Positions 5,244-63,607 of a stretch of 63,724 nucleotides of DNA are shown piece by piece. Positions within the stretch are counted from its first letter, which is position 1. Every line of letters starts with the position of its first letter. The position numbers and the translations under genes were made by a program. The notes beneath the pieces were generated by a model. That model had not been told where the DNA came from. It saw nothing but the letters and a program-made list of their open reading frames with translations, and did no database searches. The stretch comes from a bacterium CG10_46_32 (GTDB lineage: Bacteria > Patescibacteriota > Patescibacteriia > UBA2169), in NCBI GenBank assembly GCA_001889965.1, contig MOEI01000028.1, positions 1 to 63,724 on the forward strand, written 5' to 3'.

Positions 5244-6305
5244 ATGCCAAATACTAAAGGAGTGTTTAAAAAGAAAAATGTAGTGGTTATCGGCGGAGCT
5301 GGATTTATTGGGTCGCATGTTTGCGAAGCTTTGATAACAAATAAAAGAACGCAGGTTGTTTGTATTGACAATCTGGTTTCTGGCACCATTATGAATATTG
5401 AGCTGTTGTTGCAATCGCCAGATTTTAAATTTATAAGGCATGATATTACTGAGCCTATTGACCTTGCGGTTTTTCCCGAGCTTGCTCCATTCGAAATTGA
5501 GTTTGCGGGCATACAAGAAATGTATAACTGTGCAACGCCGACTTCCTATAAAGATCCCAAGCGTTTTGCCATGGAAACCGCATTAATGCATTCTGTGGGT
5601 ATTAAGAATATTTTAGATCTTGCCAAGCGACATACCGCAAAGGTGGTGCATCTTTCGTCCTCTGCTATTTACGGCGACCCACCGCCAGAGCAAGGACATT
5701 TTAAAGAAGATTATTGGGGATTTATTAATCCAGTTGGTGAGCGAGCTGCGTACAACGAAGGCAAGCGTTTTAGCGAGACCATGTGCACTGTGTATCGCGA
5801 AAAAGAAGGCCTTGCTATTTCCATTGCTCGCATTTTTTCCACCTATGGTCCGCGTATGATTATGGCTGAAGGCAGGCATATTCCGGATTTTATTACAGCG
5901 GCAATAGACAACAAAGATATTGTCATCTATGGAGATAAAGAAAAAACCAGCACGTTCTGTTATGTAAAAGATACAGTCGAAGGGATTATAAAGCTGATGG
6001 AGGCATCTGATGAGATGGGCCCAATCAATATCGGCAGTGACAAAGAACATAAACTTACTGAGATAGCAGAGCAGGTGATTGCATTAGTGGGTTCAAAATC
6101 AAAAATTAATTTCGCGGCAAATCTTCCGGGTATTGCGGAACAAGGCATTCCAGATATTCAAAAAGCCAAAGACGCATTAGGTTGGTTTCCAGTAGTTACA
6201 CTCAAACAGGGCCTGACTGAATCAATTGAATATATGCGTTCAGTAAAATCAAGCTACGAACAGAAAGGGTTGTGGGATGAGAGCACGTTGGATAGGAAGG
6301 AATAA
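5244..6305 (+). CDS. UDP-glucuronate decarboxylase (UDP-xylose synthase)-like SDR
   Basis: GGAGFIGSH Rossmann motif, plus YGDPP..E.YWG.INP.G.RAAYNEGKRFSE...IARIFSTYGPRM, which matches the UXS family signature as I recall it. Confidence 0.85.
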   Translation: MPNTKGVFKKKNVVVIGGAGFIGSHVCEALITNKRTQVVCIDNLVSGTIMNIELLLQSPDFKFIRHDITEPIDLAVFPELAPFEIEFAGIQEMYNCATPTSYKDPKRFAMETALMHSVGIKNILDLAKRHTAKVVHLSSSAIYGDPPPEQGHFKEDYWGFINPVGERAAYNEGKRFSETMCTVYREKEGLAISIARIFSTYGPRMIMAEGRHIPDFITAAIDNKDIVIYGDKEKTSTFCYVKDTVEGIIKLMEASDEMGPINIGSDKEHKLTEIAEQVIALVGSKSKINFAANLPGIAEQGIPDIQKAKDALGWFPVVTLKQGLTESIEYMRSVKSSYEQKGLWDESTLDRKE

Positions 6306-6306
6306 T

Positions 6307-7257
6307 ATGAAGGTGCTTGTCACTGGAGGAGCCGGGTTTATCGGCTCCCATATCGTTGACGGTTTAGTTAGTGAGGGTCACGAAACCGTGATCCTCGATG
6401 ATTTTAGTGCAGGCAATCATGAGTTTGTTAATTCCGCGGCAAGCGTTGTGGAAGCGGATATTCGGGATACGGAAGCCGTTAATCGTGCGTTTCAAGAACA
6501 GCAACCCGAGGCAGTGTTTCATTTGGCTGCAATGGTTGACCTAAGAGAGAGTTTAAAAAATCCAGAAAAGTCATATGCAGTTAATGTTATTGGATCGCAG
6601 AATATAATTCGCGCCGCGAAAAATGTGGGCGTCAAAAAATTTATTTTTTCATCATCAGCAGCAGTGTATGGAAACAATAATAATTTGCCCATAAAAGAAT
6701 CAGAACCCATAGCGCCAACTTCTCCGTATGGTGAGCAAAAAGCAGAAATTGAAAAAGCGCTCAAAGATTCTGGCGTTCCATCAATTGTGTTGCGCTACGC
6801 AAATGTGTACGGCCCGCGGCAAGGTACGGTCGGCGAAGGAGGGGTAGTTGCAATTTTTTGCAAAAAATTGCGTGCAGGCGAACAGCTTGCTGTGTTTGGC
6901 AGCGGAGAACAAACGAGGGACTTTGTGTTTGTAGATGACGTTGCCTCCGCAAATCTTAAGGCCTTGGCATATACAGGGGCGTATGCCATCTGCAACATCT
7001 CAACCCGCATCGAAACCAGCGTAAACCACATTGCTTCCGCGCTCTTGTCAGTATCCCAAAAAAATACTACTATTTCTCACACAGAAGCGCTCCCAGAAGA
7101 AGTGCTTCGGAATAGCTTAGATTCTAGTTTTGCCCAGAAAACGCTTCATTGGGAGTCTGTAATAAGCATTGAAGAAGGGCTAGAAGCCACATGGAAGTGG
7201 TTTACAGAAAATGTCAAAGTCAAAAATTCAAATGCCAAATCAATGCCAAAATTCTAA
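6307..7257 (+). CDS. NAD-dependent epimerase, UDP-glucose 4-epimerase (GalE)-like
   Basis: MKVLVTGGAGFIGSH start preceded by GGAAGG; SSAAVYG and YGEQK (YxxxK) motifs. The ORF-track start at 6277 was trimmed to the RBS-backed ATG. Confidence 0.85.
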   Translation: MKVLVTGGAGFIGSHIVDGLVSEGHETVILDDFSAGNHEFVNSAASVVEADIRDTEAVNRAFQEQQPEAVFHLAAMVDLRESLKNPEKSYAVNVIGSQNIIRAAKNVGVKKFIFSSSAAVYGNNNNLPIKESEPIAPTSPYGEQKAEIEKALKDSGVPSIVLRYANVYGPRQGTVGEGGVVAIFCKKLRAGEQLAVFGSGEQTRDFVFVDDVASANLKALAYTGAYAICNISTRIETSVNHIASALLSVSQKNTTISHTEALPEEVLRNSLDSSFAQKTLHWESVISIEEGLEATWKWFTENVKVKNSNAKSMPKF

Positions 7258-7328
7258 TAACAAAGTTTTTAGCCTTTAAGCATGTAACATTCATTTGAGC
7301 TTTGGATTTTGACATTTAGGTTTGATTT

Positions 7329-8621
7329 ATGAGACTATCCATTATTGGCGCGGGATACGTAGGGCTCGTCAGTGGAGCCGCATTCGCAGAATTTGGACAT
7401 GATGTCATTATCATGGATATTGATCGTGAGAGGATCGCAAAACTGCAGCGTGGCATTGTTCCAATTCACGAACCAGGACTTGACCGACTTTTGGATAAAA
7501 ATTCAGATCGAATCAGTTATACTTCCAACATGGAAGAGGCAGTGCGCGAAGCTGATATCCATTTTATTTGCGTGTGGACTCCTCCATTAGAAGACGGAAG
7601 CGCGGATCTTTCAGCCGTGCGTGCGGTTGCGCGCGAACTTGGAAAACAGTTTGTAAAACTAAAGGTTAAAACTCCAATTATTGTAACAAAAAGCACGGTG
7701 CCAGTTGGCACGGGTGTTGCTATTCAGCGCCTTGTTCGGCAATCCTATAAAGGTGATTTTAGCGTTGTATCAAATCCGGAATTTTTACGCGAGTCCCAGG
7801 CAGTTGCGGACATGCTTCGGCCAGATCGGATTGTAGTTGGTTCAAATGATCCAGATGCTGCGAAAACTATTGCAGGGGTATACCACGATGTTAATGCGCC
7901 GATTATCATGACAGATTTGGCAACAGCGGAAATGATTAAATATGCGGCAAACGCATTTTTGGCAACCAAGATTTCTTTTATTAATGAAGTTGCAAATATT
8001 TGCGAAATTGTGGGCGCGGATGTCGAGCGGGTTGCCGAAGGAATTGGACATGATCCTCGAATCGGCAAGGCGTTCCTTAAAGCAGGTATGGGATATGGAG
8101 GTTCATGTTTTCCAAAAGACGTTCGGGCATTGCATCAGTTTTCGAACGCAAGCGGATATGATTTTAAACTTTTAAAATCCGTGATTGAAGTGAATGAGCA
8201 GCAGCGGCAGATGATTGTTGATAAAGTTAACAAGCATTTAAAAATTTTGAACGGCAAAAATATTCTCGTTCTAGGCTTGGCGTTTAAAGCGCATACTGAT
8301 GATGTACGTGAATCTGGAGCGCTTGATATCATCGAGCGTCTGCAAATACAAGGGGCGAACATTACTGCCTTTGATCCGCTTGCATTGTTGAATGCAAAAA
8401 AGAAATTAAATGATTTAGTTATTCTTGTTGGAAACGCGCACGAGGGTGCGGTTGGGGCTGATGCGATTATTGTTGCCACGGAATGGCCAGACTTTAAAGA
8501 GTTGGATTGGGAGCGCATCCAGAGTGTAATGCGTAAGCCGCTTATCATCGATGGCCGAAATTTACTTGATCCGAGTGAAATGAGAAAATTAAAATTCATC
8601 TACGAAGGGGTAGGAAGATAG
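7329..8621 (+). CDS. ugd: UDP-glucose 6-dehydrogenase
   Basis: 430 aa with an N-terminal IIGAGYVGL Rossmann motif and the GYGGSCFPKD catalytic-Cys motif. Length is typical of Ugd. Confidence 0.92.
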   Translation: MRLSIIGAGYVGLVSGAAFAEFGHDVIIMDIDRERIAKLQRGIVPIHEPGLDRLLDKNSDRISYTSNMEEAVREADIHFICVWTPPLEDGSADLSAVRAVARELGKQFVKLKVKTPIIVTKSTVPVGTGVAIQRLVRQSYKGDFSVVSNPEFLRESQAVADMLRPDRIVVGSNDPDAAKTIAGVYHDVNAPIIMTDLATAEMIKYAANAFLATKISFINEVANICEIVGADVERVAEGIGHDPRIGKAFLKAGMGYGGSCFPKDVRALHQFSNASGYDFKLLKSVIEVNEQQRQMIVDKVNKHLKILNGKNILVLGLAFKAHTDDVRESGALDIIERLQIQGANITAFDPLALLNAKKKLNDLVILVGNAHEGAVGADAIIVATEWPDFKELDWERIQSVMRKPLIIDGRNLLDPSEMRKLKFIYEGVGR

Positions 8622-8622
8622 C

Positions 8623-9294
8623 ATGTCTATTGTAGTTATTATTCCAGCATACAAAGAAGCGCAAAAAATTTTTGACGTTGTGCAACGCGTGCGTGAAAAA
8701 GGATATGATGTTGTCGTTGTTGATGACGCGTCTCCTGACGCAACATCAAGTGAAGCATGGCGAGCCGGAGCAGTTGTGTTGCGGCATTTTGTAAACCGCG
8801 GATACGGCGCCGCGCTTTCTACTGGAAATGCATATGCAATGCGTCGTGGGTATGATATTGCGGTTCATTTCGATGGAGATGGACAGCATAGTGCCGACGA
8901 AATTGAGCGCGTTGTAGTACCTATCCAAAAAGGCGAAGCTGAAGCAGTGGTGGGTTCACGATTTTTAGGACGTGCCACTGAAATGTCTTTTGTCCGAAAG
9001 CTACTTATTAAACTTGCTATTCTTTTTACGTGGCTGTTTTCTGGTATCAAGTTAACCGACAGCCACAATGGGTTTCGAGCATTTTCAATCTCTGCGCTTA
9101 AGGCTATTGACTGTAGGCAGGATGGTATGTCGTATGCGTCTGAAGTTATTGATCAGATTGCAGAACATAAGTTGTCTATCTGCGAAGTTCCGGTGACTAT
9201 TCAGTATACAGACTACTCAAAAGCTAAAGGAGAGGGTAATATAAAGAAAGTACTGCTTGGGGCCCGATTTTTATGGGGGAAAGTGATTAAATGA
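8623..9294 (+). CDS. GT2 polyprenyl-phosphate glycosyltransferase (GtrB/GacI/DPM1-like)
   Basis: 223 aa. IVVIIPAYKE, VVVVDDASPD and DGDGQH motifs are typical of the short GT2 dolichyl/undecaprenyl-phosphate sugar synthases. Confidence 0.85.
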   Translation: MSIVVIIPAYKEAQKIFDVVQRVREKGYDVVVVDDASPDATSSEAWRAGAVVLRHFVNRGYGAALSTGNAYAMRRGYDIAVHFDGDGQHSADEIERVVVPIQKGEAEAVVGSRFLGRATEMSFVRKLLIKLAILFTWLFSGIKLTDSHNGFRAFSISALKAIDCRQDGMSYASEVIDQIAEHKLSICEVPVTIQYTDYSKAKGEGNIKKVLLGARFLWGKVIK

Positions 9295-9305
9295 GCCTTT
9301 AAGAT

Positions 9306-9392
9306 GGCTGTTCGGGGCTATAAATTTTTTCGCTCCGAAGGGGGCTAGAGCCCATACATTCTCGCTACAAAATTTATAGCCCCTGCACACCC
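9306..9392. repeat. Copy 1 of an ~85-nt hairpin-forming intergenic repeat (GTTCGGGG...CTCCGAAGGG...CCCTGCACACC)
   Basis: Shares termini and core with 54824..54904 and 63526..63607. GGGGCTATAAATTTT pairs perfectly with AAAATTTATAGCCCC. Confidence 0.85.
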
Positions 9393-9400
9393 TAGATCAA

Positions 9401-9739
9401 ATGAATCATATGTTAATCCAAATCATCACAACCATTGTCGTTTTATTCCTGATTACGCGCGTAGGCGGAAGGCTTAAGCGTAGGGAAATTACTTTTAAAG
9501 AAGCCTTGTTTTGGGCGCTTCTGTGGTTTGGCGTTGGGATTGTAGTTCTGTATCCGAAGCTTGCGGACCGCGTTGCATCATATATTGGATTACAAACCGC
9601 AACTGGTATTGATTTAGTAGTATATATTGCGGTTGGCCTAGCGTTTTATCTTATCTTCCGATTATTCGTGCATATTGAGCGCGTGGAGCGTGATATAACT
9701 AAAATCATACGCCACCTGGCTTTGAAAGATGAAGAATAA
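9401..9739 (+). CDS. DUF2304-type small membrane protein (GacJ-like partner of the upstream GT2)
   Basis: 112 aa with three hydrophobic helices. The R/K-rich loop (GRLKRREITFKEALFW) and C-terminal amphipathic ERVERDITKIIRHLA match my recollection of DUF2304. It lies directly downstream of a GT2, as that family usually does. Confidence 0.75.
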   Translation: MNHMLIQIITTIVVLFLITRVGGRLKRREITFKEALFWALLWFGVGIVVLYPKLADRVASYIGLQTATGIDLVVYIAVGLAFYLIFRLFVHIERVERDITKIIRHLALKDEE

Positions 9740-10766
9740 CCTCGCAATAATTATTGTTACTTACAACGGAAGCACATGGATTAAAAAATGCCTTGCTTCC
9801 GTTTTTCGGAATGACCCCACACAAGGGGGGTATGATGTCATTTTGATTGATAACGCGTCGCACGATGGGACCGCGGATATTGTGGAAAAAGAATTCCCAC
9901 CGGTTGCTGTTATCCGCTCCAGTAAAAATCTTGGATTTGTAGGCGGTAATAATCTGGGAATCAAAGAGGCGTTACGTCACCAGTACGAATATATTTTAAT
10001 GTTGAATCAGGATACAGAGGTTGTGTCTGATTTTTTTTCTGAAATTATAAAAGTTGCGGTGCTGGATCATGTTGGAATCGTACAAGGGATGCTGGTGTTG
10101 GGGGATGAGCGGTCATTAACAAACAATGCGGGTAATGCGCTTCATTATTTAGGTTTTGGGTTTGTAAAACAGTATGGCGAACCAGTTGAACGATGGGCGA
10201 GTCGTGAGCCGTTTGAAATTGGGTATGCATCCGGCGCTGCGCTTCTCGTCAAAAGAGAAGTACTGGAACACATCGGGGTGCTGGATGAGAAGTTTTTTAT
10301 GTACCATGAGGATTTGGATTTGTGCTGGCGCGCGAAATTGGCCGGCTACCGCGTCATGTTGGCTCCGAAAGCAATTGTGTATCACTACTATGAATTCAAC
10401 CGCAACAAGGAAATGTTTTATTGGACCGAGCGCAACCGGTGGGCTGTACTGTTGCAGAACTACAGCGCCAAATCACTCATACTCCTTTCGCCGATGCTCG
10501 CGGCCACCGAACTAATGATGCTTGTATATAGTGTAATGAGTGGATGGCTTGGCAAGAAGCTTAAGAGTTATGTTTGGATTTTAGCGCATCTTCCCCAAAT
10601 TTTTGCACAACACCGGCGCGTGCAGTTGTCGCGCACGGTTAGCGATAAACGCATTTTTAAAACCATGGATGCCACGTTTACTATGGCGGGAATAAATAAT
10701 CCAATCATTACAAGAGTATTGAATTCACTGTTTACTGTTTATTTTGCGATCATCAGAATCATATGA
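9729..10766 (+). CDS. GT2 glycosyltransferase (rhamnosyltransferase/WbbL-like)
   Basis: IIVTYNG, IDNASHDGT and YHEDLDLCWRA motifs. Overlaps the upstream gene by 11 nt. Confidence 0.88.
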   Translation: MKNNLAIIIVTYNGSTWIKKCLASVFRNDPTQGGYDVILIDNASHDGTADIVEKEFPPVAVIRSSKNLGFVGGNNLGIKEALRHQYEYILMLNQDTEVVSDFFSEIIKVAVLDHVGIVQGMLVLGDERSLTNNAGNALHYLGFGFVKQYGEPVERWASREPFEIGYASGAALLVKREVLEHIGVLDEKFFMYHEDLDLCWRAKLAGYRVMLAPKAIVYHYYEFNRNKEMFYWTERNRWAVLLQNYSAKSLILLSPMLAATELMMLVYSVMSGWLGKKLKSYVWILAHLPQIFAQHRRVQLSRTVSDKRIFKTMDATFTMAGINNPIITRVLNSLFTVYFAIIRII

Positions 10767-11881
10767 ACATAGCAATTGTAAGCGCAGTATTTCCGCCATA
10801 TCGAGGTGGTATTGGAGCCGTGGCCCAAGCCCACGCTCGTATGTTGGCATTAAAAGGACAAAACATATCAATGTTTACGCCGAATTATGGGCAGGGTGCA
10901 TATGTAGGAGATGCTTCGTATAAGATTGAATTGTTGCAGCCAAAGCTGAAATATGGAAATGCAGCTTGGGTGCCGCAGCTAGAAAGCCAATTAAAAGATT
11001 TTGATGCGGTGATTTTGCAGTATCCATTTTTTGGAGGAATGCGTGCTGTATATAATGCAAAAAAGAAGTATGGATTCAAATTGATATTGAATTACAATAT
11101 GGATGTGGTAGGTTCGGGTTTAAAAGGATTGGTATTTTGGTATGCAACAAAATTTTTTTTACCACGTATCGTCAAGATCGCGGATGTAGTGCTCGCGTCA
11201 TCCGAAGATTACGCAAGGCATTCTGATTTGGGGCGCTTGTGGTCCAATGACAAAAAGTTCCAAGTGGTGCCTATTGGTGTTGACTTAAATAAGTTCAAGC
11301 CAGATCCCTCCGCTCGCCTGCGGCTCGGTCGGGATGACAAAGGGATGGTGTTGTTTGTTGGAGGTTTGGATCGCGCGCACTATTTTAAAGGAGTTGAGTA
11401 TTTGATTAAGGCTATGCCATTGGTTTCCATGGACGCGAAATTTGTCATCGCCGGAAAAGGCGATCGTATGGAACAGTATGAAAAACAGGCTCAAAACCTT
11501 GGTGTTGCTGATCGTGTTACATTCGCAGGAGGAGTGTCAGACGAAGAGCTTGTTGCATTGTACCAGAACGCGGCAGTTACTGTGCTGCCATCTATTGATC
11601 AATCAGAGTCATTCGGCATCGTGCTCGCAGAGTCCATGGCATGTGGCACGCCAGTTATCACGTCAAACCTACCTGGCGTTAGGTCGGTGTACCAAGATGG
11701 CGTGTCCGGAATAACAATTCCAGTCCGCGACGAGAAAGCGCTTGCAAATGCAATCAATTTTATAGTAACTAATCCATCAAAACACGCAGCAATGGGAAAA
11801 TCTGCTCGCAAACTTTGCGAAACAAGGTATACTGGGGAGAGTATTGGAAATACATTACTTACACTATGCGGCGTTCAATAA
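10763..11881 (+). CDS. GT4 (GT-B fold) glycosyltransferase
   Basis: 372 aa. The C-terminal PS..ESFGIVLAESMACGTPVI motif is the E-x7-E region of GT4 enzymes. ATGA overlap with the upstream stop. Confidence 0.88.
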   Translation: MNIAIVSAVFPPYRGGIGAVAQAHARMLALKGQNISMFTPNYGQGAYVGDASYKIELLQPKLKYGNAAWVPQLESQLKDFDAVILQYPFFGGMRAVYNAKKKYGFKLILNYNMDVVGSGLKGLVFWYATKFFLPRIVKIADVVLASSEDYARHSDLGRLWSNDKKFQVVPIGVDLNKFKPDPSARLRLGRDDKGMVLFVGGLDRAHYFKGVEYLIKAMPLVSMDAKFVIAGKGDRMEQYEKQAQNLGVADRVTFAGGVSDEELVALYQNAAVTVLPSIDQSESFGIVLAESMACGTPVITSNLPGVRSVYQDGVSGITIPVRDEKALANAINFIVTNPSKHAAMGKSARKLCETRYTGESIGNTLLTLCGVQ

Positions 11882-14184
11882 TACAAACATTACTCTTGTT
11901 CGCATCAGTTGCGCTTTTGTACAGCAACTGGACCGGAAGCAAATCATTTGTTGTTGGGCTTGTTGGCCTTGCAGTATATTATGGTCTCCAAGCAATTTGT
12001 TGGGGAGTTGTTTTGGAGCGCATACTTCCATTCAATAGGGCGTGGGCATCTGTATTTGGATTTTTAGTTGGGTTCTACCTTTCCGCATTTGCTGTTGGTA
12101 TTCCAGTTGTGGTATGGAAGTATGATAGGATCGCCGTTGCATGTGCGCTACTATTTGTTGGTTTGGTGGGTATACTGTTGTCATTGTGGATGAAATCAAA
12201 TAATAGCATCATCCCAAACTCATTGCGGGATCCTTACGGAAAACAGATTCTGAAACAAGTTCAGCATGACGCCCTAAAGAAGATTTCTTCGTTTCTCGCT
12301 TTAGTGCGAGATTGGCATGTAATTGGTTTTTTTGTGTTTTCCGCCTTGTTTGCATTTTTTATTTTTCATGCCCGCACGGGAGTGTATATTATTTCCCCAT
12401 GGGCCGCGCTTTCATCATTTACGCTCATGCTTTTTTTTGCGCTTGCGTTTTTGGTGGGGTATATGGTGCTCACAAAAGGATCAATTAAGCTGGTGCTTGC
12501 GGTCATCATCGTATTTTCGTACCTTACGCATGCGTATTTGCCGGTTATCTACGAAACAGGATTTGGCGGGGACAAATGGCGCCATTTGGGAGCCGAACAA
12601 TGGCTACAAGAAGGGAATATTTATACTCCGAGCATTTGGGGAGAGGATCGCTCCACTATTCATTTCGGGCCTATTGCGGTTCCCGAGGCTTTGGTTGCAG
12701 GAAATAAAACATCATACGCAGCTCAATGGGCATCAACTATCTTTTTATCTGAATCTTTTGGGGTGAGCTTATTTTGGGTTGATTTGTTGATGGTATTTTT
12801 GCTCTGGTCGTTGTTTCTTCCACTGCTGTTATATTGGTTCGGCAGGTTGATTTTTGAAAATGAGCGCTTAGGGTTATTATTCGCATTTTTGCCGACCATT
12901 TTTTATACGTTCCAGTCCGAAGGCGCTATTACGATTCCGGTTTCGTTCGGGCATTTATTTTTCTTTTTTATTTTATTACTATGGGCGCAGTATGTTAAAG
13001 AGGGAAAACGGGCCGCATTGTATGCGGCAAGCGTATTCTCTTTGATGTTTTATTGGGGGTATATTTTGAATTTTTTCGTGTTGCTTCTTTTTGGCAGTTT
13101 GGCAATTGCATGGCGAAAATTGTTTATGGAGCGCAATCATTGGTATAAGCTTAAGCTTAAGTTTGGATTCAGCGACCGAAGGATCGCGCTCCGCGATAAA
13201 ACTATTTTTGTACTTTTGGTTTTTGGCGCGTTGTTCGCAATTCCATTTTTGGAGATATTCCAAGGACTCTCCAACTACGCCTCAGGTTCAATGTCTGTTG
13301 GAGGTGTGGTGGATGCGCTTGCAGATTCTTTCGGCAGGCTTTCTGGGTTTATCGGAATTATAGTGCCCCCTGATTTTATTGATCAGGGAAACTTTTTGTA
13401 TAACCAATCTAAAGAGTCACTCTCACGCTTGCCACTATTCTCCTACCGAATTGTTCCGTTTGTCGTTTCTATGGGCGTGTGGACTGTTATTGGCTGGGCT
13501 TGCTATCGCTTGTTCCGATACCACAAGGCGAAGCGTGTGCTGGCGCTCATTGCTGTTTTGTTTGGCGTCACTTTGGGTGCGTACTTTATTTCCTGGTCAT
13601 TTACCGAGGGTGTGCACATTTTGGCGCGCCGGCTTAATGAGACAATTGTATTTTTTATGATTTTGTTTTTAGGATGGGGGATGTGGCTATTCTTGCACGA
13701 AGACCGCATTCCCATTCCTATGCGGAAAAAGATTCTTGTTGTTGCTTTTTTGCTCGCGTTTAGCGCGACATCAACCTATGCATCCGGCCCTAAACTGCAA
13801 ATGGTAACCAGTGATGAGCTGGCGGCGGCGCGCGTCGTGTGGGCTGAACACCAACTAGATGGAGAGCCACACTGCGTTATTGCAAATACCTGGCCGTTGC
13901 TTGGGCTTGAAGCGGTATCTGGCCGTAAAATTACGGGCGGAAATTTTCCTATGTACACGGAGTATGCCCAGCCAGAGCGTGTTAAGATTTTTGAAGCATT
14001 GTCAAAATCGCCATCAGACACATGGATTACCGCGGCATTCCGCGTGACTGGCGCATCCACCTGTTACTACATGACTGAGAATAAATGGATTAATGATACC
14101 GTGCTTGGCAAGATTATTGAATTACTTGGCGAGCCACGGCGTATTGGGGATGTGCATATTTGGCGGATTGACAGGCAACTCTAA
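11866..14184 (+). CDS. Large polytopic membrane protein, candidate GT-C-type glycosyltransferase/polymerase
   Basis: ~770 aa with more than 12 predicted helices and a soluble C-terminal domain. I could not recognise a family. The start was taken at the internal ATG 11866 (the track ORF begins at 11815). Confidence 0.7.
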   Translation: MRRSIIQTLLLFASVALLYSNWTGSKSFVVGLVGLAVYYGLQAICWGVVLERILPFNRAWASVFGFLVGFYLSAFAVGIPVVVWKYDRIAVACALLFVGLVGILLSLWMKSNNSIIPNSLRDPYGKQILKQVQHDALKKISSFLALVRDWHVIGFFVFSALFAFFIFHARTGVYIISPWAALSSFTLMLFFALAFLVGYMVLTKGSIKLVLAVIIVFSYLTHAYLPVIYETGFGGDKWRHLGAEQWLQEGNIYTPSIWGEDRSTIHFGPIAVPEALVAGNKTSYAAQWASTIFLSESFGVSLFWVDLLMVFLLWSLFLPLLLYWFGRLIFENERLGLLFAFLPTIFYTFQSEGAITIPVSFGHLFFFFILLLWAQYVKEGKRAALYAASVFSLMFYWGYILNFFVLLLFGSLAIAWRKLFMERNHWYKLKLKFGFSDRRIALRDKTIFVLLVFGALFAIPFLEIFQGLSNYASGSMSVGGVVDALADSFGRLSGFIGIIVPPDFIDQGNFLYNQSKESLSRLPLFSYRIVPFVVSMGVWTVIGWACYRLFRYHKAKRVLALIAVLFGVTLGAYFISWSFTEGVHILARRLNETIVFFMILFLGWGMWLFLHEDRIPIPMRKKILVVAFLLAFSATSTYASGPKLQMVTSDELAAARVVWAEHQLDGEPHCVIANTWPLLGLEAVSGRKITGGNFPMYTEYAQPERVKIFEALSKSPSDTWITAAFRVTGASTCYYMTENKWINDTVLGKIIELLGEPRRIGDVHIWRIDRQL
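12220..12270. repeat. Short GTCAT-type palindromic repeat unit embedded in frame in the membrane-protein CDS
   Basis: TCATTGCGGG...GATTCTGAAACAAGTTCAGCATGAC. The last 25 nt match 36157..36181 at about 21/25 positions and fold as CTGAA/TTCAG. Translated as SLRDPYGKQILKQVQHD. Confidence 0.55.
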
Positions 14185-14236
14185 AAAAAGTATCGTGTGT
14201 ATTATTGTTCTTCGGCCTCTAACGGAGGAATGTGGT

Positions 14237-14479
14237 ATGTTTAGGCTTATTGACTGGTTTGTGCTGTTTGGGTTTCCTGTTGGGGCAGTTCTGGTAGTTT
14301 GGTTCCTTATGACACCAGAGAATCCATTGAGAAGGTTTATGATTTCCCCAGTAGGAATTATCCTCTGCCTGGTAGCGTGGGTACTCTGGATGGCAATGAT
14401 TGTCGGTTTTATATGTCAACGGCAGCAAGAGAGTGACTCATTCAACTTGCCGTATGATGAATGGGAATCAGGCGAGTGA
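14237..14479 (+). CDS. Small two-TM membrane protein
   Basis: GGAGG lies 10 nt upstream of ATG 14237. 80 aa with two hydrophobic helices, followed by an intrinsic terminator. Confidence 0.6.
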   Translation: MFRLIDWFVLFGFPVGAVLVVWFLMTPENPLRRFMISPVGIILCLVAWVLWMAMIVGFICQRQQESDSFNLPYDEWESGE

Positions 14480-14557
14480 GCATGAGCCGATATCAGTACG
14501 CCTTTAGCGAAAGGAATAAGAGGCGTTGCTTGTTGTATCGGGTCATTTCCTCGTCCG

Positions 14558-14595
14558 CGTCTGCGAAGCCAAAGGTTTCGCAGACGTATTTTTTT
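14558..14595 (+). terminator. Rho-independent terminator
   Basis: 10-bp stem CGTCTGCGAA/TTCGCAGACG, 9-nt loop, then TATTTTTTT. Confidence 0.8.
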
Positions 14596-14623
14596 GTGGA
14601 CAACTCTCTACTTGTTCGTTTTT

Positions 14624-15679
14624 TTATAGAAGATTTTTTGGGAAGATTCCGTTTTCAAACCAAACGTTCCATCCTTTGTAATGTTTGTGTTTTTGTATTT
14701 CAGCACGCTTGTGTTTCATAGTTGCTATGCCAGCCAATCCATCAGCCATTGCTTTGGCGATGATCCAAGGCCTGTCTTTAAATATATAACCAAAGAAGAT
14801 GGTCATCCATCCGAGAATAATCCAGAGCACATTGCGGAAGAAAACCGCTGTAGGATAATTTTTGTATTGCGTCCAAATCAAATTACGGTAGGTAGTATAT
14901 ACCGCAAAATCCGAAAGCTTGCTTGTTGATGCAGAGCCCTTGTGATATACAACTGCGTCTTTATCATACCCTGCTTCAAATCCGAGCAAGTGGGCGCGGA
15001 ATCCGAGGTCAATGTCTTCGGTGTATGCAAAGTATGTTGGATCAAAATACCACTTGTCATTGCGAGGGAGGGTACTCCCGACCGTGGCAATCTTATCATC
15101 GCCATGGTTGCCTGTAGCCTTGGAATCGTGCTCTGAGGCGACGTTAGGATTGCCGCGCTCCGCTACCGCTCCGCTCGCAATGACACAGGCTTCTAATAAC
15201 CTTCTAGAGTACAGTGCGCATCCCGCAGAGGGGCAGAAGATCTTTTGCTTTTCATTCAATCGGTTGAAAGGTAAACCGCTTTTCATCATCACCACGCCGA
15301 GGTTGTCTACTTTGTCGCGATTGTTGTATTGCATCATGTGGCCGGCAATCATATCACCCTTAGCTTGCGCCATGGTAGTCAAAAAGCTCGGTTCAACTTC
15401 AGTGTCATTATTAAGGACTAGGACGGCATCGGTGGCGTCATTAGCAAGTGCGTGCCTCATGCCTATATTATTGCCCTCCGCAAAGCCTAGATTACTCTCA
15501 TTCTGAATGAGAGTAATCTTGGGAAATTCATCCATCAAAACCTTGCCGTGGCCATCTGCGTCATTATTTACAACAATGACGGAGTAGCTCGGATAGTCTA
15601 TTTTTTCAAGCGATTTTAAGCAGGCCTTGGTGTCATCAAGGTTTTTGTAGTGCAGGACAATAATTGCAATATGTGACAT
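14624..15679 (-). CDS. GT2 glycosyltransferase carrying an in-frame repeat insertion
   Basis: MSHIAIIVLHYKN, VVNNDADG and YTEDIDLGFRA motifs; paralogous to 9729..10766. The track ORF extends to a TTG at 15727; the ATG at 15679 fits the usual GT2 N-terminus. Confidence 0.85.
   Translation of the reverse strand: MSHIAIIVLHYKNLDDTKACLKSLEKIDYPSYSVIVVNNDADGHGKVLMDEFPKITLIQNESNLGFAEGNNIGMRHALANDATDAVLVLNNDTEVEPSFLTTMAQAKGDMIAGHMMQYNNRDKVDNLGVVMMKSGLPFNRLNEKQKIFCPSAGCALYSRRLLEACVIASGAVAERGNPNVASEHDSKATGNHGDDKIATVGSTLPRNDKWYFDPTYFAYTEDIDLGFRAHLLGFEAGYDKDAVVYHKGSASTSKLSDFAVYTTYRNLIWTQYKNYPTAVFFRNVLWIILGWMTIFFGYIFKDRPWIIAKAMADGLAGIATMKHKRAEIQKHKHYKGWNVWFENGIFPKNLL
15056..15184. repeat. 129-bp GTCATTGCGAGG...CTCGCAATGAC palindromic element inside the GT2 CDS
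   Basis: Same terminal inverted repeat as 16539..16626 and 20813..20930. It is exactly 43 codons, read on the minus strand as VIASGAVAERGNPNVASEHDSKATGNHGDDKIATVGSTLPRND. Confidence 0.85.
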
Positions 15680-15714
15680 ATTCATATAGGTTATTGTTAT
15701 GGTAGTATAGCTAT

Positions 15715-16536
15715 ATGAAAGATACAAGAAACATTCTATATGTCGCTCGTTCCTTTCTCTGGGGCGGGTCTGTTCTATTTCTCGCCTGGCTGTTTTTCCA
15801 GAACCTGGTGCCCACCGGGGAGTTTGTTTTACAGTACAAAAAAGGGAGCGCTATTTCGCCGATTACGGATCTGCATCCGGAACAGCGCGTGATTGATTTG
15901 GATGATGATGGCCCGAATAGCCAGCGTTTTTATGTTGATCCTGTGTACTTTGATGCAAAAGTTCCGCGCGAGTTTGATACGGTGACCGTTGATATAACAT
16001 TCCAAAATCAAGCCCAACCAATCTTGGAGCTAGGTGCACGTCGTTTGCGTGGAAGTTGGGGTTTTGTAATGAAGCCGTTGCAGAATACAATTATCGACAA
16101 CCTCGATTGGCCGTGCCAGCGGTATGATGGTGTACTGTTCTGCCAAAAGCAGGAGCGTTATACGAACCTTTCTGCATTACTGGTAAAGCCTCCTTCCGAA
16201 CCAATTTTGACGTACCACTATGCGCTTCCAGAGAATATTCAGTGGGATGTTATGAATGTAAATACTGATACAAGCGAGTATAATTATCTGGTGGCAACAT
16301 ATACGCCTCCTGAATCACTAGGAGATGATTGGTACCGAACTAGTGTTCCATTTGTATGGAGCGATTTTGAGTTGTACATCAACGAGATCAGTTTTTTGGT
16401 TTCTGCTCCGGAATTAAATAAAGGACATGGTGATATTGTGCTTAAGGATATTACTATCCTACTCAAGCGCGACCCATTGGATTGGAACGGATTTGTTGAG
16501 TACATAAAAAACCAATTGAAAAGATTAAAAACTTAG
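15715..16536 (+). CDS. Hypothetical membrane-anchored protein
   Basis: 273-aa ORF with an N-terminal TM helix. No family recognised. Divergent from the GT2 gene. Confidence 0.7.
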   Translation: MKDTRNILYVARSFLWGGSVLFLAWLFFQNLVPTGEFVLQYKKGSAISPITDLHPEQRVIDLDDDGPNSQRFYVDPVYFDAKVPREFDTVTVDITFQNQAQPILELGARRLRGSWGFVMKPLQNTIIDNLDWPCQRYDGVLFCQKQERYTNLSALLVKPPSEPILTYHYALPENIQWDVMNVNTDTSEYNYLVATYTPPESLGDDWYRTSVPFVWSDFELYINEISFLVSAPELNKGHGDIVLKDITILLKRDPLDWNGFVEYIKNQLKRLKT

Positions 16537-16538
16537 TT

Positions 16539-16626
16539 GTCATTGCGAGGGAGCGAAGCGACTGCGGCAATCTTATCAACCAGCCGCAGCTCGATGGTAA
16601 GATTGCTTCGCTACGCTCGCAATGAC
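16539..16626. repeat. 88-bp intergenic copy of the GTCATTGCGAGG...CTCGCAATGAC palindromic element
   Basis: Perfect 11-12-nt terminal inverted repeats. The internal arms GCGAAGCGACTGCGGCAATCTTA / TAAGATTGCTTCGCTACGC also pair. Confidence 0.9.
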
Positions 16627-16816
16627 AATTCTACTAAAACTCAATACCGAGCTATTCCGTGCATCCGGAGTACTTACGCTTGTGCTTTACTTTTTAGAGA
16701 CGCTGAAAGATGGGTATGTATCGTTTTTCGTTAATCCGGCTATCATGCTGGCTGTTTTTGTCGTATCCGGCATAATCTGGCTTTTTACTCCTGATTCTGG
16801 TAAAGTAGGGGTATGA
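16622..16816 (+). CDS. Possible small two-TM membrane protein
   Basis: 64-aa ORF whose stop overlaps the rmlC ATG (ATGA at 16813). Its ATG is the ATGAC terminus of the repeat. No clear SD. Confidence 0.4.
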   Translation: MTILLKLNTELFRASGVLTLVLYFLETLKDGYVSFFVNPAIMLAVFVVSGIIWLFTPDSGKVGV

Positions 16817-17262
16817 TAGAAGATATAGTAATCAAACCATTAGAGCGTTGGGCGGATGAGCGCGGCTGGCTTTCCGAAGTGTGGAGAAATGACGAAATGG
16901 ACTACCAGCCAGTGATGGCATATGTCTCCAAAACAGAATCAGGCATAAGCCGCGGACCGCACGAACACAAAGATCAGTCTGATGGGTTTATTTTTGCGGG
17001 CCCGGGAAATTTTGATTTGTATCTCTGGGAGAACCGCGAGGGAAAGCCTGGGTACCGCGAGTTATTCAAGCTGACTGTCGGCGAGGATAATCCCGTGTTT
17101 GTGATGGTGCCGCCGGGCGTAGTGCATGGATACAAATGTATCTCCAAGGCAGGCGCGTATTCGTTTAACCTTCCGGATCGCTTATACAAAGGAAAAGGAA
17201 AGCAAGATGAGGTTGATGAAATCAGATGGGAACAAGATCCTAAATCACCATTTAAGATATAA
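16813..17262 (+). CDS. rmlC: dTDP-4-dehydrorhamnose 3,5-epimerase (short cupin form)
   Basis: 149 aa. ERGWLSEVWR, RGPHEH and VPPGVVHGY follow the RmlC cupin pattern. Sits with rmlB, rmlD and rmlA. Confidence 0.8.
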   Translation: MIEDIVIKPLERWADERGWLSEVWRNDEMDYQPVMAYVSKTESGISRGPHEHKDQSDGFIFAGPGNFDLYLWENREGKPGYRELFKLTVGEDNPVFVMVPPGVVHGYKCISKAGAYSFNLPDRLYKGKGKQDEVDEIRWEQDPKSPFKI

Positions 17263-17272
17263 TTAAAACCAT

Positions 17273-17680
17273 ATGTCAGACTGTATTTTTTGTAACATAG
17301 TAACAGGTGAATCACCTTCGCACAAAGTGTATGAGGATGATGATATTCTCGCATTTTTAGATATTAATCCCATTAACCCTGGACACACATTAGTAATTCC
17401 AAAAGAGCATTACAAAGATTTAACAGATACCCCTCCAGAGCTTGCTTCAAAACTTATTCAAACTGTACAAAAAATTAAGCCAGCAATACTTGGAGCAGTG
17501 GGAGCTGATTCTTTTAACCTTGGAGTTAATGTTGGAAAAAAAGCTGGGCAAGTTGTTTTTCATACGCACTTCCATATTATGCCTCGGTTTGAAGATGACG
17601 GGCATAAACTCTGGGGAGGCAAGCAAGTAGCGCAGGATGAACTTGCATTGACCGCGGAACATATTAAGAAACTTCTTTAA
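17273..17680 (+). CDS. HIT-family (histidine triad) nucleotide hydrolase/transferase
   Basis: 135 aa. CIFC N-terminus and the HTHFHIMPR histidine-triad motif. Confidence 0.9.
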   Translation: MSDCIFCNIVTGESPSHKVYEDDDILAFLDINPINPGHTLVIPKEHYKDLTDTPPELASKLIQTVQKIKPAILGAVGADSFNLGVNVGKKAGQVVFHTHFHIMPRFEDDGHKLWGGKQVAQDELALTAEHIKKLL

Positions 17681-17729
17681 CTAATAAGGACGTTAGACCC
17701 TTCGACTTCGCTCAGGGTGACGTGTAATT

Positions 17730-18725
17730 ATGAACATAGCAGTAACCGGATCGCTCGCATACGACCGGATCATGGATTTTAATGATAGATTCCGGAATCA
17801 CATTATTCCGGATAAAATTCACCTGCTGAATGTGTCTTTTGTGTTGGAGCGCTTGGAAGAAAAATTCGGAGGCACAGCCGGCAACATTGCGTACAATCTT
17901 AAATTGCTTGGTTTTGATTCTAAAATTATTGGAAGTGTTGGAAAAGATTTTGAGCGGTATGCTGCATATTTAGTCGGGCAAGGTATTAGCACTGAGCATA
18001 TTAAAATGTACGAAGACGAGTACACTGCAGTCGCAAACATTATTACGGATTTGGACGACAATCAGATCAGCGCGTTCTACCCTGGAGCGTTGTCGCGCGG
18101 GCATGAAGTACATTTACCGCGTAGTTTTGTATCAGGTGATTTTCTAGTAGTAGCACCTTCTTCAAAACAAGAAATCGTCAAGCGGTGCAAAGAAGCGCGT
18201 GACCGAAAGATTCCATACTTGTTTGATCCGGGCCAACAGATGAGCGTGCTTTCTGCGGAAGAGCTTTTGTATTGCGCTGAGGGTTCCGCGATTTCGATTT
18301 TTAATGATTATGAGTGGCAGATGTTCCGGACCAAGACAGGTGTTGAATTGAATGATATAACAAAAAACGAAACCATTGTTGTGGTGACTCAAGGAGCAAA
18401 TGGTTCGATGATCCATTCCAAGCAAGGGAATTTTGCAATCAGTACTGCAAAGCCTCGGGAGGTTGTAGATCCAACCGGCGCCGGAGATGCCTACCGCGCG
18501 GGAATCATTGTTGGATTCATCAGCCAGCGGAGCTGGAAAGAAACCGGCCAGCTTGCTGCGACCATTGCATCGTATGCTATTGAGAAGTATGGCACCCAGG
18601 AGCACCATACTTCAATTGATGAAATAAACGAACGGTATAAAACATCATTTAACGAGCACAGTCCGCTTGATACAGCTCCGGATCCGCGCGAACAAGCAGC
18701 TGACCACGGGGACCGGAGATTTTAA
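17730..18725 (+). CDS. PfkB-family carbohydrate/nucleoside kinase
   Basis: FGGTAGNIAYNL N-terminal motif and DPTGAGDAYRAG C-terminal PfkB signature. Confidence 0.88.
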   Translation: MNIAVTGSLAYDRIMDFNDRFRNHIIPDKIHLLNVSFVLERLEEKFGGTAGNIAYNLKLLGFDSKIIGSVGKDFERYAAYLVGQGISTEHIKMYEDEYTAVANIITDLDDNQISAFYPGALSRGHEVHLPRSFVSGDFLVVAPSSKQEIVKRCKEARDRKIPYLFDPGQQMSVLSAEELLYCAEGSAISIFNDYEWQMFRTKTGVELNDITKNETIVVVTQGANGSMIHSKQGNFAISTAKPREVVDPTGAGDAYRAGIIVGFISQRSWKETGQLAATIASYAIEKYGTQEHHTSIDEINERYKTSFNEHSPLDTAPDPREQAADHGDRRF

Positions 18726-18727
18726 TT

Positions 18728-19738
18728 ATGAAATTACTTATTACCGGAGGAGCCGGGTTTATCGGTTCTAATTTTATCCGCTACCTGTTAAAAAATTATC
18801 CAGACGAAGTGCTCATTAATTTTGACAAGCTTACGTACGCCGGAAATTTGGAGAATCTTAAAGAGTTTGAAGAGGATGCGCGTTACTCTTTTATCAAAGG
18901 AGATGTGTGCGACGCAAATGCGTTTATAGAAGCCGCACAAGGCGTTGATGCGATTGTGCATTTTGCCGCGGAATCGCACGTGGATAGATCCATCCATTCC
19001 GGCCACGAATTTATCCACACCAACGTATTTGGCGCGCAGGTTGTCATCGACGCAGTCAAAGAACTGAAAATCCCCAAAATGATTCTCGTAAGCACGGACG
19101 AAGTGTATGGAGATGTGGATGCTCCAAAAAAATCAAAAGATGGGGATCCGTTTAAGCCATCCAGCCCATATTCCGCATCCAAGGCAGCGGCCGAATCACT
19201 GGCAATCGCGGCAATCCGCACGCATGAGGCGCCCATTATGATTACGCGGTGCACCAACAATTACGGGCCATATCAGTTTCCAGAAAAACTCGTGCCTTTG
19301 TTTATCACTAATCTTATTGAAGGCAAAAAAGTTCCGCTCTACGACGGAGGCACGCAGATTCGCGACTGGCTGTATGTTTCCGACCACTGCAGTGCTATTG
19401 ATTTAGTGTTGCGCAAGGGTACGCTTGGCGAGGCATATGACATTGCCGCGGAAAATGACCCGGAAGTCACGAATAGAGAAATTACAGAAACCGTTCTCGC
19501 ATTGCTCGGTAAAGGTAATGATATGATTGAGCCGGTAAGTGGCTTGCGCCCTGGGCATGATCAGCGGTATGCGGTTGACTCTTCAAAAATCCGTTCCTTA
19601 GGCTGGGAGCCAACTGTCACGCTCAAAGAAGGGCTTGTAAGCACCGTTACATGGTATCAGGATAACGAAGACTGGTGGAAGCGCGTAAAGAGCGGGGATT
19701 ACCAGCACTATTACCAACAGCACTACCAAACATCATGA
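18728..19738 (+). CDS. rmlB: dTDP-glucose 4,6-dehydratase
   Basis: MKLLITGGAGFIGSNF, STDEVYG, YSASKAA (YxxxK), RCTNNYGPYQFPEKL and QIRDWLYV are classic RmlB motifs. Confidence 0.95.
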   Translation: MKLLITGGAGFIGSNFIRYLLKNYPDEVLINFDKLTYAGNLENLKEFEEDARYSFIKGDVCDANAFIEAAQGVDAIVHFAAESHVDRSIHSGHEFIHTNVFGAQVVIDAVKELKIPKMILVSTDEVYGDVDAPKKSKDGDPFKPSSPYSASKAAAESLAIAAIRTHEAPIMITRCTNNYGPYQFPEKLVPLFITNLIEGKKVPLYDGGTQIRDWLYVSDHCSAIDLVLRKGTLGEAYDIAAENDPEVTNREITETVLALLGKGNDMIEPVSGLRPGHDQRYAVDSSKIRSLGWEPTVTLKEGLVSTVTWYQDNEDWWKRVKSGDYQHYYQQHYQTS

Positions 19739-20412
19739 AGCTGCCTCTTATTACTCCTTCTCTGGTAACATACACCAAAGGAAAGCCGGTTTCGCGCGGG
19801 TATATTGATGCGCGCATCCGGGAAATTAATGCATTGGGGCTTAAAGAAATTTCTTTATTTGTGACGGGGTACGAAAAAAAAGGGCGCGACTATGTCCATG
19901 AAAAACTCAAGACCACGGGCATTGTTTCGATTCCGCACGTACATATCCGCGCAGACCAAACTGAGCACGAGGTTCGGCATTATATGGAAACATATGGTAC
20001 GCGCCGCTTTACGACACACTATGAGTATATTCCGTATTTTACAAAATTCAGTGCAGATGTGCGCGCTTGCATTGGCATAGAAAATAATAATGATTTTAAG
20101 CTTGATAAAAAATTGGATCGATTTGGCGGGCTGGTGATTGATCTCTCACATTATGTTGATGTGCGGGAACAAGGCATTGCTCGTGATATTGAACGCGCCC
20201 TCGAACGGCTGCCGGTTTTAGTGAATCACGCGAGCGCGGTGACTGCGGCGAGCGAGTCGCGCCATTTTGCCCGCAGCGTACAGCAATACGCATACCTGCG
20301 TACTATGCCAAAAAAATGTTTTAGCGAGGTGGTGAGTTTGGAGATTGGCAATACTCTTGCCGCGCAATTAAGCTTTATCCCTTTTATTAAAAAGCAACTG
20401 GCACGCGTATGA
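19735..20412 (+). CDS. Hypothetical protein embedded in the rml operon (possible TIM-barrel fold)
   Basis: 225 aa from the ATG that overlaps the rmlB stop (ATGA); its own stop overlaps the rmlD ATG. IGIENNN and IDLSHY faintly recall xylose-isomerase-like/AP-endonuclease-2 barrels. Confidence 0.65.
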   Translation: MKLPLITPSLVTYTKGKPVSRGYIDARIREINALGLKEISLFVTGYEKKGRDYVHEKLKTTGIVSIPHVHIRADQTEHEVRHYMETYGTRRFTTHYEYIPYFTKFSADVRACIGIENNNDFKLDKKLDRFGGLVIDLSHYVDVREQGIARDIERALERLPVLVNHASAVTAASESRHFARSVQQYAYLRTMPKKCFSEVVSLEIGNTLAAQLSFIPFIKKQLARV

Positions 20413-34158: not shown

Positions 34159-34232
34159 TCGGGGATCGTCTAATGGTAGGACATCAGGTTCTGGACCTGA
34201 GAATCGGGGTTCGAGCCCCTGTCCCCGAGCCA
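34159..34232 (+). tRNA. tRNA-Gln (anticodon CTG), CCA encoded
   Basis: Hand-folded cloverleaf: acceptor TCGGGGA/TCCCCGA, D stem GTCT/GGAC, anticodon stem TCAGG/CCTGA with loop TTCTGGA, T arm CGGGG-TTCGAGC-CCCTG. U1-A72 and G73 are typical of tRNA-Gln. Confidence 0.9.
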
Positions 34233-54821: not shown

Positions 54822-54823
54822 TA

Positions 54824-54904
54824 GGTGTTCGGGGTGTGCATTTTTCGACTCCGAAGGGATCATAGCTCATCATTCTCATCTCAAAATGCACACCCTGCAC
54901 ACCC
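54824..54904. repeat. Copy 2 of the ~85-nt hairpin-forming repeat
   Basis: GGTGTTCGGGG...CTCCGAAGGG...CATCATTCTCATC...CCCTGCACACCC. The inner stem GGGTGTGCATTTT / AAAATGCACACCC differs in sequence from copy 1 but still pairs. Confidence 0.85.
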
Positions 54905-54918
54905 TAAACCCAAAAAAC

Positions 54919-55751: not shown

Positions 55752-55773
55752 GATTAGAGATATTCATAAAACA

Positions 55774-60631: not shown

Positions 60632-60657
60632 TTACGCCATATTACTTATCCCCATGC

Positions 60658-63525: not shown

Positions 63526-63607
63526 GGTGTTCGGGGGTATACATTTTTTCACTCCGAAGGGGGGCTTCGTCCATACATTTTCGCTAGGAAATGGCCCCCT
63601 GCACACC
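63526..63607. repeat. Copy 3 of the ~85-nt hairpin-forming repeat
   Basis: GGTGTTCGGGGG...CACTCCGAAGGGGGG...CCATACATTTTCGCTAG...CCCCCTGCACACC. It starts 7 nt after the DUF4012 stop and ends 34 nt before the IS end. Confidence 0.8.

Follow-up and report, generated by a model that had tools for sequence, protein, structure and literature searches.

A family of small foldback repeats with covarying stems at gene junctions of Patescibacteria, possibly mobile

The window, by which we mean the whole stretch of 63,724 nucleotides analysed here (contig MOEI01000028.1 of the bacterium CG10_46_32), matches the JGI contig Ga0210019_1000306. As shown in Table 1, it carries three copies of a short repeat, all on the + strand and each 2-12 nt past the stop codon of a + strand gene. 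Cell-envelope glycan genes dominate the window in two stretches, which encode epimerases, UDP-glucose dehydrogenase, rml-type dTDP-sugar enzymes, GT2 and GT4 transferases, Wzy_C, a sugar transferase and a DUF4012 protein. These clusters hold two of the three copies; no functional link to the glycan genes is read from this, since copies elsewhere flank unrelated genes.

Table 1. Positions of the repeat copies, their parts and neighbours, and other features in the window.
Feature	Position	Strand	Remarks
Copy 1	9307-9391	+	Intact; covariance model 94 bits
Copy 1, outer helix and terminus			GCTGTTCG
Copy 1, stem arms	9314-9328 / 9369-9383		GGGGCTATAAATTTT pairs with AAAATTTATAGCCCC
Copy 1, invariant motif	9333-9342		CTCCGAAGGG
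Copy 1, small hairpin	9342-9353		GGGC-TAGA-GCCC
Copy 1, segment CATACATTCTCG	9353-9364		
Copy 1, 5' neighbour	9292-9294		Stop codon of GT2 gene
Copy 1, 3' neighbour	9410		Conserved start of DUF2304 gene
Copy 2	54824-54903	+	Covariance model 75.6 bits
Copy 2, stem			GGGGTGTGCATTTT / AAAATGCACACCC, intact; small hairpin degenerate
Copy 2, core			CATTCTCA replaces CATTCTCG
Copy 2, neighbour recJ	54819-54821		Stop codon
Copy 2, neighbour rnhA	54919		Start
Copy 3	63526-63607	+	Decaying; covariance model 76.2 bits
Copy 3, core			Present, CATTTTCG variant
Copy 3, stem			3' arm lacks ~3 nt; middle of stem unpaired
Copy 3, upstream neighbour	63517-63519		Stop codon of DUF4012-domain gene
Unoccupied S41 protease|rplI site	26100-26103		Genes overlap, ATGA
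Cell-envelope glycan genes	5244-21338; 55864-63519		
Different palindromic repeat	16536-16628		TTGTCATTGCGAGGGAGCGAAGCGAC...CTCGCAATGACAA; partial match at 15052-15070
tRNA	34159-34229		Directly after dnaX-like gene
ORF with TTG start	54799-55320		Starts within recJ end, in frame across copy 2 into rnhA
RNase P RNA	55380-55753		Class A, 205.8 bits; 60 nt past rnhA
IS481-like transposase gene	63653-63724	-	At window end; last 24 codons only

The three copies recognised in the earlier note are real, and their limits were refined to those in Table 1; a mean column identity of 81% was obtained from their alignment. No fourth copy was found in the window by motif searches with mismatches or by the covariance model. 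The description of shared termini, core and stems given in that note also held, with the stem of copy 3 partly broken. Copies 1 and 2 had been placed 9-15 nt before the ATG of the following genes, and this distance needed correction for copy 1, as the conserved ATG of the DUF2304 gene is 18 nt off, at 9410 and not at 9401. On both strands, copies 1 and 2 folded better than shuffled sequence, as RNA (z of −3.5 to −5.4) and as DNA (z of −3.4 to −6.0), and the folding of copy 3 was weaker (z of −2.4 and −1.6).

A specific pattern scan detected the element in 4 of 185,579 species-representative genomes. Two of them are the Parcubacteria MAGs PCVT01 and JACOVK01; the other two, CAYIMZ01 and CAZSGI01, are labelled 'uncultured Gammaproteobacteria' and have genes closely related to those of the window. 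The covariance model added a fifth genome, the Patescibacteria MAG JAHJSI01 (L147), and 20 groundwater-type metagenome contigs, scanned with a pattern of the core and 3' end only, also carry the element. Removal of duplicates left 23 distinct copies of about 85 nt (range 77-96), which score 70-110 bits with the covariance model and come from hosts with a G+C content of 0.39-0.58. Copies are few, 1-4 being seen per genome; the window has three over its 64 kb, and three MAGs have 2-4 each. The first genome pattern, GTTCGGGGN{12,18}CTCCGAAGGG, was too loose: among the matches listed, five of 116 loci were real, and the remaining listed ones were chance matches in high-G+C genomes. Viral contigs gave no match to the element, nor did plasmid and phage collections. 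As a side observation, the loci L036, L054, L061, L077, L090, L146 and L162 belong to the MAGs CAZSGI01, CAYIMZ01 and CAZXOU01, all labelled 'uncultured Gammaproteobacteria'. The window shares 77-91% identity with them in the DUF2304, GT2, RecJ and RnhA genes, whose other closest relatives are from Parcubacteria or Patescibacteria; the labels look wrong.

As judged from the consensus, the element is built from the outside inwards as follows. The conserved ends GGTGTTCGGG and CCCTGCACACC are imperfect inverted repeats (GGTGTTC-GGGG differs from the reverse complement GGTGTGCAGGGG by one mismatch and one indel), which are kept in 22 of the 23 copies, and the outer helix of 4-5 bp (GGTGT/ACACC) has a small internal loop. 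The 15-bp stem starts with GGG(G)/(C)CCC and ends with ATTT(T/C)/(A/G)AAAT, with 7-8 free positions between. Inside the stem follow a 3x3 internal loop and a 2-bp helix, whose outer pair (columns 30:74) alternates between G-C in 13 copies and A-U in 8. The apical core of about 45 nt is conserved, asymmetric and non-palindromic, and consists of CTCCGAAGGG, a small hairpin and CAT(N)CATTCTCG. The first and last of these parts are invariant; the small hairpin varies in sequence and length (GGGC-TAGA-GCCC, GAAGC-TAAA-GCTTC, GCCTGCC-TTC-GGCAGGC) and is absent from one copy. Across the 23 copies, 35 columns are invariant.

Structure is preserved while the sequence differs, as the earlier note had proposed from the window copies, and this now extends to all 23. 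RNAalifold predicted 27 pairs in their alignment, 10 of them with double changes. The proportion of paired cells was 96.6%, compared with 88.6% in column-preserving shuffles and reached by none of 500 shuffles, and 54 double-change cells were observed against 18.2 expected. When the partners were shifted by 1-3 columns, pairing fell to 32-62% of cells. Covariation is also found outside the palindromic stem, in the column pair 30:74 and in the length-variable small hairpin. A pairing of 5 bp in the core (CGAAG/CTTCG) was considered and rejected, as copies 1 and L077 give it no support.

An RNA stem normally tolerates G.U pairs on its own strand. Of 340 cells in the variable stem, 320 are Watson-Crick, and G.U and A.C occur in six cells each; being equally rare, they favour neither strand, and such symmetry is in keeping with DNA or with a process blind to strand. 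Two near-invariant predicted pairs, 9:94 and 39:60, are G.U on the + strand only; since these columns barely vary, their pairing is not confirmable. Each small hairpin forms a perfect palindrome about a 3-nt spacer, with C-GAA-G on one strand opposite C-TTC-G. As a DNA mini-hairpin, C-GAA-G is known for its unusual stability.

The comparison of orthologous gene junctions shows sites that are filled in some relatives and empty in others at three places. The GT2|DUF2304 junction is filled in five lineages (the window, L036/L145, L077, L133 and L137/L147) and empty in L146 and L148, where it reads ...AAATAA-T-ATG... and the DUF2304 proteins are 79-81% identical to that of the window. The recJ|rnhA junction is filled in the window alone and empty in L161 (spacer of 15 nt), in L164 (JACOVK01), where the genes overlap, and in L162/L163 (CAZSGI01), where the spacer is the 36-nt CGAGGTCGTTTTAGGTTCGGGCAATCATCCCTCCAA (L162 2465-2500, CAZSGI010000006.1). 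This spacer holds GTTCGGG and CAATCAT in the order of the element and, to judge from these motifs, may be the remnant or scar of an internally deleted copy. The S41 protease|rplI junction is filled in L090 and L140 (8639-8741) and unoccupied in the window. In element-free relatives, the genes at GT2|DUF2304 and recJ|rnhA overlap or lie 1-36 nt apart. Since CAZSGI01 and JACOVK01 carry the element elsewhere, these contrasts are differences in insertion site and not in the presence of the family. Close relatives can dispense with the element at the same junctions. The idea that it supplies a 5' UTR or promoter is not supported, as relatives lack it there and no sigma-70-like promoter was found around copies 1 and 2; a search for an intrinsic terminator (hairpin and T run) around the same two copies was also negative.

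By crude ORF calls, about 17 of the 23 copies are in sense orientation to their flanking genes (about 17:6), and most copies are sense and lie between a stop codon and the next start. The element adjoins the stop codon of the upstream gene in both orientations. Three copies are clearly antisense to real genes: L134, flanked by guaA and an amidohydrolase gene; L061, with a beta-helix protein gene on one side and ftsK on the other; and L124 (3095-3175), after a gene of 159 codons. On its other side, the L124 copy is flanked by what appears on inspection to be a tRNA gene with a terminal CCA, and an IS5-like (DUF772 + DDE_Tnp_1) transposase gene lies about 290 bp beyond it. The flanking genes are diverse, unrelated housekeeping genes, and no association with gene function was found. 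The GC skew is positive in the orientation of the element at most loci; this bias would agree with an orientation fixed with respect to replication, but is confounded with gene strand on these short contigs and was given no weight.

One copy lies in coding sequence. In L122/L123 (L123 6950-7041), the element is antisense and in frame within a Mur-ligase/FolC-type ORF, to which it adds about 31 residues (KRCAGDAHFVARMMERSDPSERRNAHPRTPA); this folC-like protein is deposited with the insert as BK004_00970 of 'bacterium CG10_46_32'. Among 11 aligned FolC homologues, seven have no insert at the site and four have other, unrelated inserts, so that the insert sits in a variable, insert-prone stretch of the alignment. 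A six-frame peptide search of 5.8 billion proteins returned only this insertion in folC, the recombinant related to it and a single ORF call that was over-extended. In columns ~250-300 of the FolC alignment, the element is present in P0001 and other inserts in P0002, P0003, P0004 and P0010. These other inserts (e.g. ...HPGNAQ..GSAGAGCSAE... and ...SPLVLRGGLRGG...) look like translated other repeat families, so that repeats seem to insert in frame in this stretch with particular frequency, as at a hot spot.

Debris and recombinants were found among the copies, which points to repeated insertion and recombination. In L133, a further 5' fragment precedes the full copy by 36 nt, the 5' terminus is duplicated in L054, and the arms of L126 and L160 do not match. 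In L160 (ENA k141_1311978; 738-1496 and 883-974), the arm on the FolC side is joined to the flank and arm of the L120 copy; folC is truncated to its C-terminal half, and one flank is identical to that of the L120 copy. This arrangement could be due to ectopic recombination at the conserved core or to a chimeric assembly. The earlier statement that the element is not decaying junk is right only in part, given the unpaired arms of copy 3, L126 and L160 and the possible remnant in L162.

The five orthologous copies at the DUF2304 site differ from their surroundings in conservation. Third codon positions of the flanking genes are 35-62% identical and the spacers beside the element are barely alignable, compared with 78-91% identity in the element core, which indicates that the core is constrained or repeatedly renewed. 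At this site, the similarity of the elements does not track the divergence of their hosts: in the closest hosts, L036a and L077, the genes are 0.82 and the elements least similar (0.70), and in the most distant, L036a and L133, the genes are 0.68 and the elements most similar (0.88). Together with the L133 fragment, this mismatch makes simple vertical descent less likely than replacement, re-insertion or conversion, so that orthologous copies may owe their 'compensatory' differences to having come from different sources.

The search for an autonomous parent gave none: a scan of the 185,579 species genomes with the 5' half returned complete small elements only. A convincing target-site duplication, one of the signs looked for after the earlier note, was likewise not found, the best flank repeats averaging 2.3 nt against 1.5 nt in mismatched controls; the copies are old. 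TA or TTA is common at both flanks, which would also just extend the inverted repeat. Among the 25 most frequent of the 161 families matched by 122 neighbouring ORFs, no transposase family recurs next to the copies, although a single occurrence could escape such a listing, and a crude motif screen of 147 neighbouring ORFs gave no HUH enzyme. Among the ~58 genes of the window, there is no transposase, recombinase, integrase or HUH gene except the IS481-like end. This gene (rve/rve_3 + HTH) belongs to an insertion sequence that begins ~45 bp past copy 3 and that is complete in L132 (491-1378), with 20-nt inverted repeats TCAATAGCTTGTAATCACTT / AAGTGATTACAAGGTATTGA; L132 also has a copy identical to copy 3. 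The insertion sequence probably caused the contig break. As a partner it was rejected, since its ends are unrelated and it stands beside one copy only. The IS5-like gene, ~450 bp from the L124 copy, was rejected because it too is beside one copy only.

Rfam 15 at gathering thresholds recovered only the RNase P RNA and one tRNA from the window, and a search of short stretches at E <= 10 yielded only chance-level matches to microRNA, snoRNA and lncRNA families at 9-12 bits. The view that the family is unnamed is in line with this lack of an Rfam 15 match. The readings as a K-turn, a loop E or an IHF site, and as an inverton, a DGR hairpin, a retron or a tRNA-like structure, were dropped, as inspection by eye found their defining motifs absent from the consensus.

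The element can be compared with four known kinds of sequence. REPINs are REP doublets which form hairpins and are mobilised by RAYT tyrosine/HUH transposases. The element is similar to them in its length of ~80-100 nt, its mostly extragenic position, its inverted conserved ends with a less conserved, pairing middle, and its long persistence at orthologous positions; REPINs are thought to move as a single-stranded hairpin, and in both the hairpin is kept by compensatory changes, which are common across the REPIN hairpin (PMC3116915). However, the termini GGTGTTCGGGG and CCCCTGCACACC are not self-palindromic, have no GTAG and are not REP units, and no RAYT gene lies beside the copies in the neighbouring ORFs examined. 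The apex or spacer is the least conserved part of REPINs, whereas the asymmetric apical core is the most conserved part of the element, which has few copies per genome compared with tens to hundreds for REPINs.

Rickettsia palindromic elements (RPEs) are inserted in frame in genes and also occur between genes, with no known transposase or clear target duplication (PMC10969869). Like them, the element is a small palindromic repeat of a reduced-genome lineage, found between genes and in frame at tolerant positions. However, RPEs are ~100-150 bp long, mostly reported in ORFs and from a different host phylum, whereas an intact gene holds just one of 23 copies of the element, and the truncated folC holds L160, a recombinant that makes a 24th copy. 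No sequence relationship to RPEs is known.

Among MITEs, ERIC, Correia/NEMIS, RUP and Coxiella QMITE2 are intergenic, co-transcribed in operons and variably present between relatives (PMC10969869). The element shares with classical MITEs a short (under about 500 bp), non-coding, multi-copy nature, terminal inverted repeats, intergenic and often 3' UTR positions in both orientations, and presence or absence at orthologous sites; MITE transcripts fold into long RNA hairpins that can alter mRNA processing. Classical MITEs duplicate TA or another target and share their ends with a parent IS where one is known; for the element, no convincing target duplication and no parent IS were found. The arms of classical MITEs are of conserved sequence, whereas those of the element are free in sequence with compensatory change. 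Integron attC sites are also recognised as a folded single strand, with conserved ends and a stem conserved in structure and not in sequence. On inspection, however, the element has no RYYYAAC or GTTRRRY boxes, and its apex is conserved where that of attC is variable; the window copies are 45 kb and 9 kb apart with no cassette array, and no integrase is encoded in the window.

We consider it moderately probable that the element is a new family of non-autonomous, mobile foldback repeats of the MITE/REPIN/RPE kind in Parcubacteria/Patescibacteria, whose hairpin is needed for spread. In a family with stem covariation, recombination and decay, this reading draws on the filled and empty junctions, the orientation that is not tied to transcription, the in-frame insert, the recombinants, the unrelated neighbours, the wide range of host G+C, the mismatch between element and host similarity at the DUF2304 site, the equal G.U and A.C counts of the variable stem and the folding of both strands as DNA. 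Of the three options offered in the earlier note, the junction polymorphism, the occurrence in both orientations and the in-frame insert favour the MITE or REP-like one. The element would spread, or would have spread, by one strand folding on itself, most likely as single-stranded DNA, and a trans-acting, structure-specific enzyme would read the conserved ends and the apical core, the stem needing only to pair. If only copies with complementary arms were propagated, the compensatory pattern would be explained, and template switching within the quasi-palindrome may help to keep the arms matched. In operons, passive co-transcription would put a hairpin of −32 to −41 kcal/mol between cistrons as a side effect and not as a purpose.

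Several points speak against the mobile reading, namely the lack of a convincing target duplication and of a partner, the low copy number, the sense lean of about 17:6 and the G.U at 9:94 and 39:60 on the + strand only. With the window copies 81% alike, nothing shows recent movement in the CG10_46_32 genome, and the core conservation at the DUF2304 site suggests constraint or homogenisation beyond simple selfish decay. These weak points, the core conservation included, keep an RNA role alive: a host-useful, cis-acting structured RNA in operon transcripts, with mobility secondary or ancient, which we regard as rather unlikely. It could signal processing or stability, modulate translation or be a self-cleaving motif of a new kind, with the apical core as the functional or protein-binding part. 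Small ribozymes and protein-binding RNAs have variable helices around invariant loops, and the layout of the element is of this form; the core far more conserved than synonymous sites at an orthologous position, the covariation beyond the palindromic stem, the + strand-only G.U and the stop-to-next-start position of most sense copies also fit an RNA. Against it stand the well-supported antisense copies inside tight gene arrays with no promoter consensus to drive them, the antisense copy in frame in folC, the dispensability at the same junctions in close relatives, the lack of association with any gene function, a G.U tolerance of the variable stem no greater than that of A.C, and the lack of an Rfam match even at E <= 10. 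The functional ncRNA proposed in the earlier note is disfavoured by its absence from orthologous junctions, the antisense copies and the in-frame folC copy.

An old duplicated palindrome that is decaying with no structural selection appears improbable. Its arms would stay alike via template switching or extruded-hairpin repair, and its cores via gene conversion. The Watson-Crick-only stem with symmetric G.U and A.C is as a DNA-templated process would give, copies recombine (L160, L126), and decaying copies exist (copy 3 and possibly L162); however, such a relic leaves unexplained the arrival at new junctions and in a coding region in different lineages, the 35 invariant columns in 23 copies from hosts of 39-58% G+C, and the covariation of the non-palindromic 30:74 pair. 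Still less likely, and in our view very improbable, is a duplex DNA binding site of a host protein (a nucleoid, recombination, replication or uptake signal) copied around the genome. It would account for the conserved asymmetric core and terminal motifs and for intergenic sites working in either orientation relative to genes, but a duplex site leaves unexplained why 15 bp of free sequence stay complementary through compensatory change; the very few copies per genome, the dispensability at orthologous sites and the insertion in a coding region also speak against it. Chance resemblance or mere duplication of the termini, the latter named in the earlier note as a refuting case, is hardly credible. 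Copy 2 does have TGCACACCC twice in tandem, as that note had observed, and the 3' arm TGCACACACCC of one subfamily resembles the terminus, but the tandem does not explain the stems of the other copies: CTATAAATTTT, ATGTAGATTTT and GCGTACATTTC share nothing with the termini, the 23 copies score 70-110 bits, and no shuffle among 500 reached their pairing, by which this case is already refuted.

Returning to the mobile element, a new mobilisation mechanism or core function is a possibility that we rate as doubtful, its two forms taken together. In one form, an undescribed structure-dependent element could move as a folded single strand, served by a CPR enzyme which reads the asymmetric apical core (CTCCGAAGGG ... 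CATCATTCTCG) and which would differ both from RAYTs and from DDE transposases with matching ends. In the other, the core could act as a small RNA of a new type, catalytic or protein-binding, that is carried on mobile DNA and cuts or marks operon transcripts between cistrons. If the mobilising enzyme is new, the conserved apical core would be its recognition signal.

The genomes of CPR/Patescibacteria are tiny and tightly packed, with neighbouring genes often overlapping. Small mobile repeats are hardly described for them, and our search of the literature found nothing relevant; even such tightly packed genomes would have room for selfish foldback DNA, both at the junctions of genes and within a protein, in a variable stretch prone to inserts. 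Where TAATATG becomes a spacer of more than 100 nt, translational coupling is broken by the repeats, which are also substrates for ectopic recombination. The copies also offer a clean natural data set in which hairpins covary without this being the mark of a functional RNA, which calls for caution in ncRNA discovery pipelines.

For annotation, the element accounts for predicted proteins with spurious N-terminal extensions or odd inserts. One + strand frame is free of stops in 20 of 22 copies, so gene callers can add false N-terminal extensions; one such extension was seen for the NTP-transferase P0121 in L141, and the ORF across copy 2 is listed in Table 1. The different palindromic repeat of the window is probably the first family of the earlier note. 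It has a 13-mer, GGAGCGAAGCGAC, in common with the minus strand of the commonest core variant of the element, which could be a coincidence or a shared mini-hairpin module.
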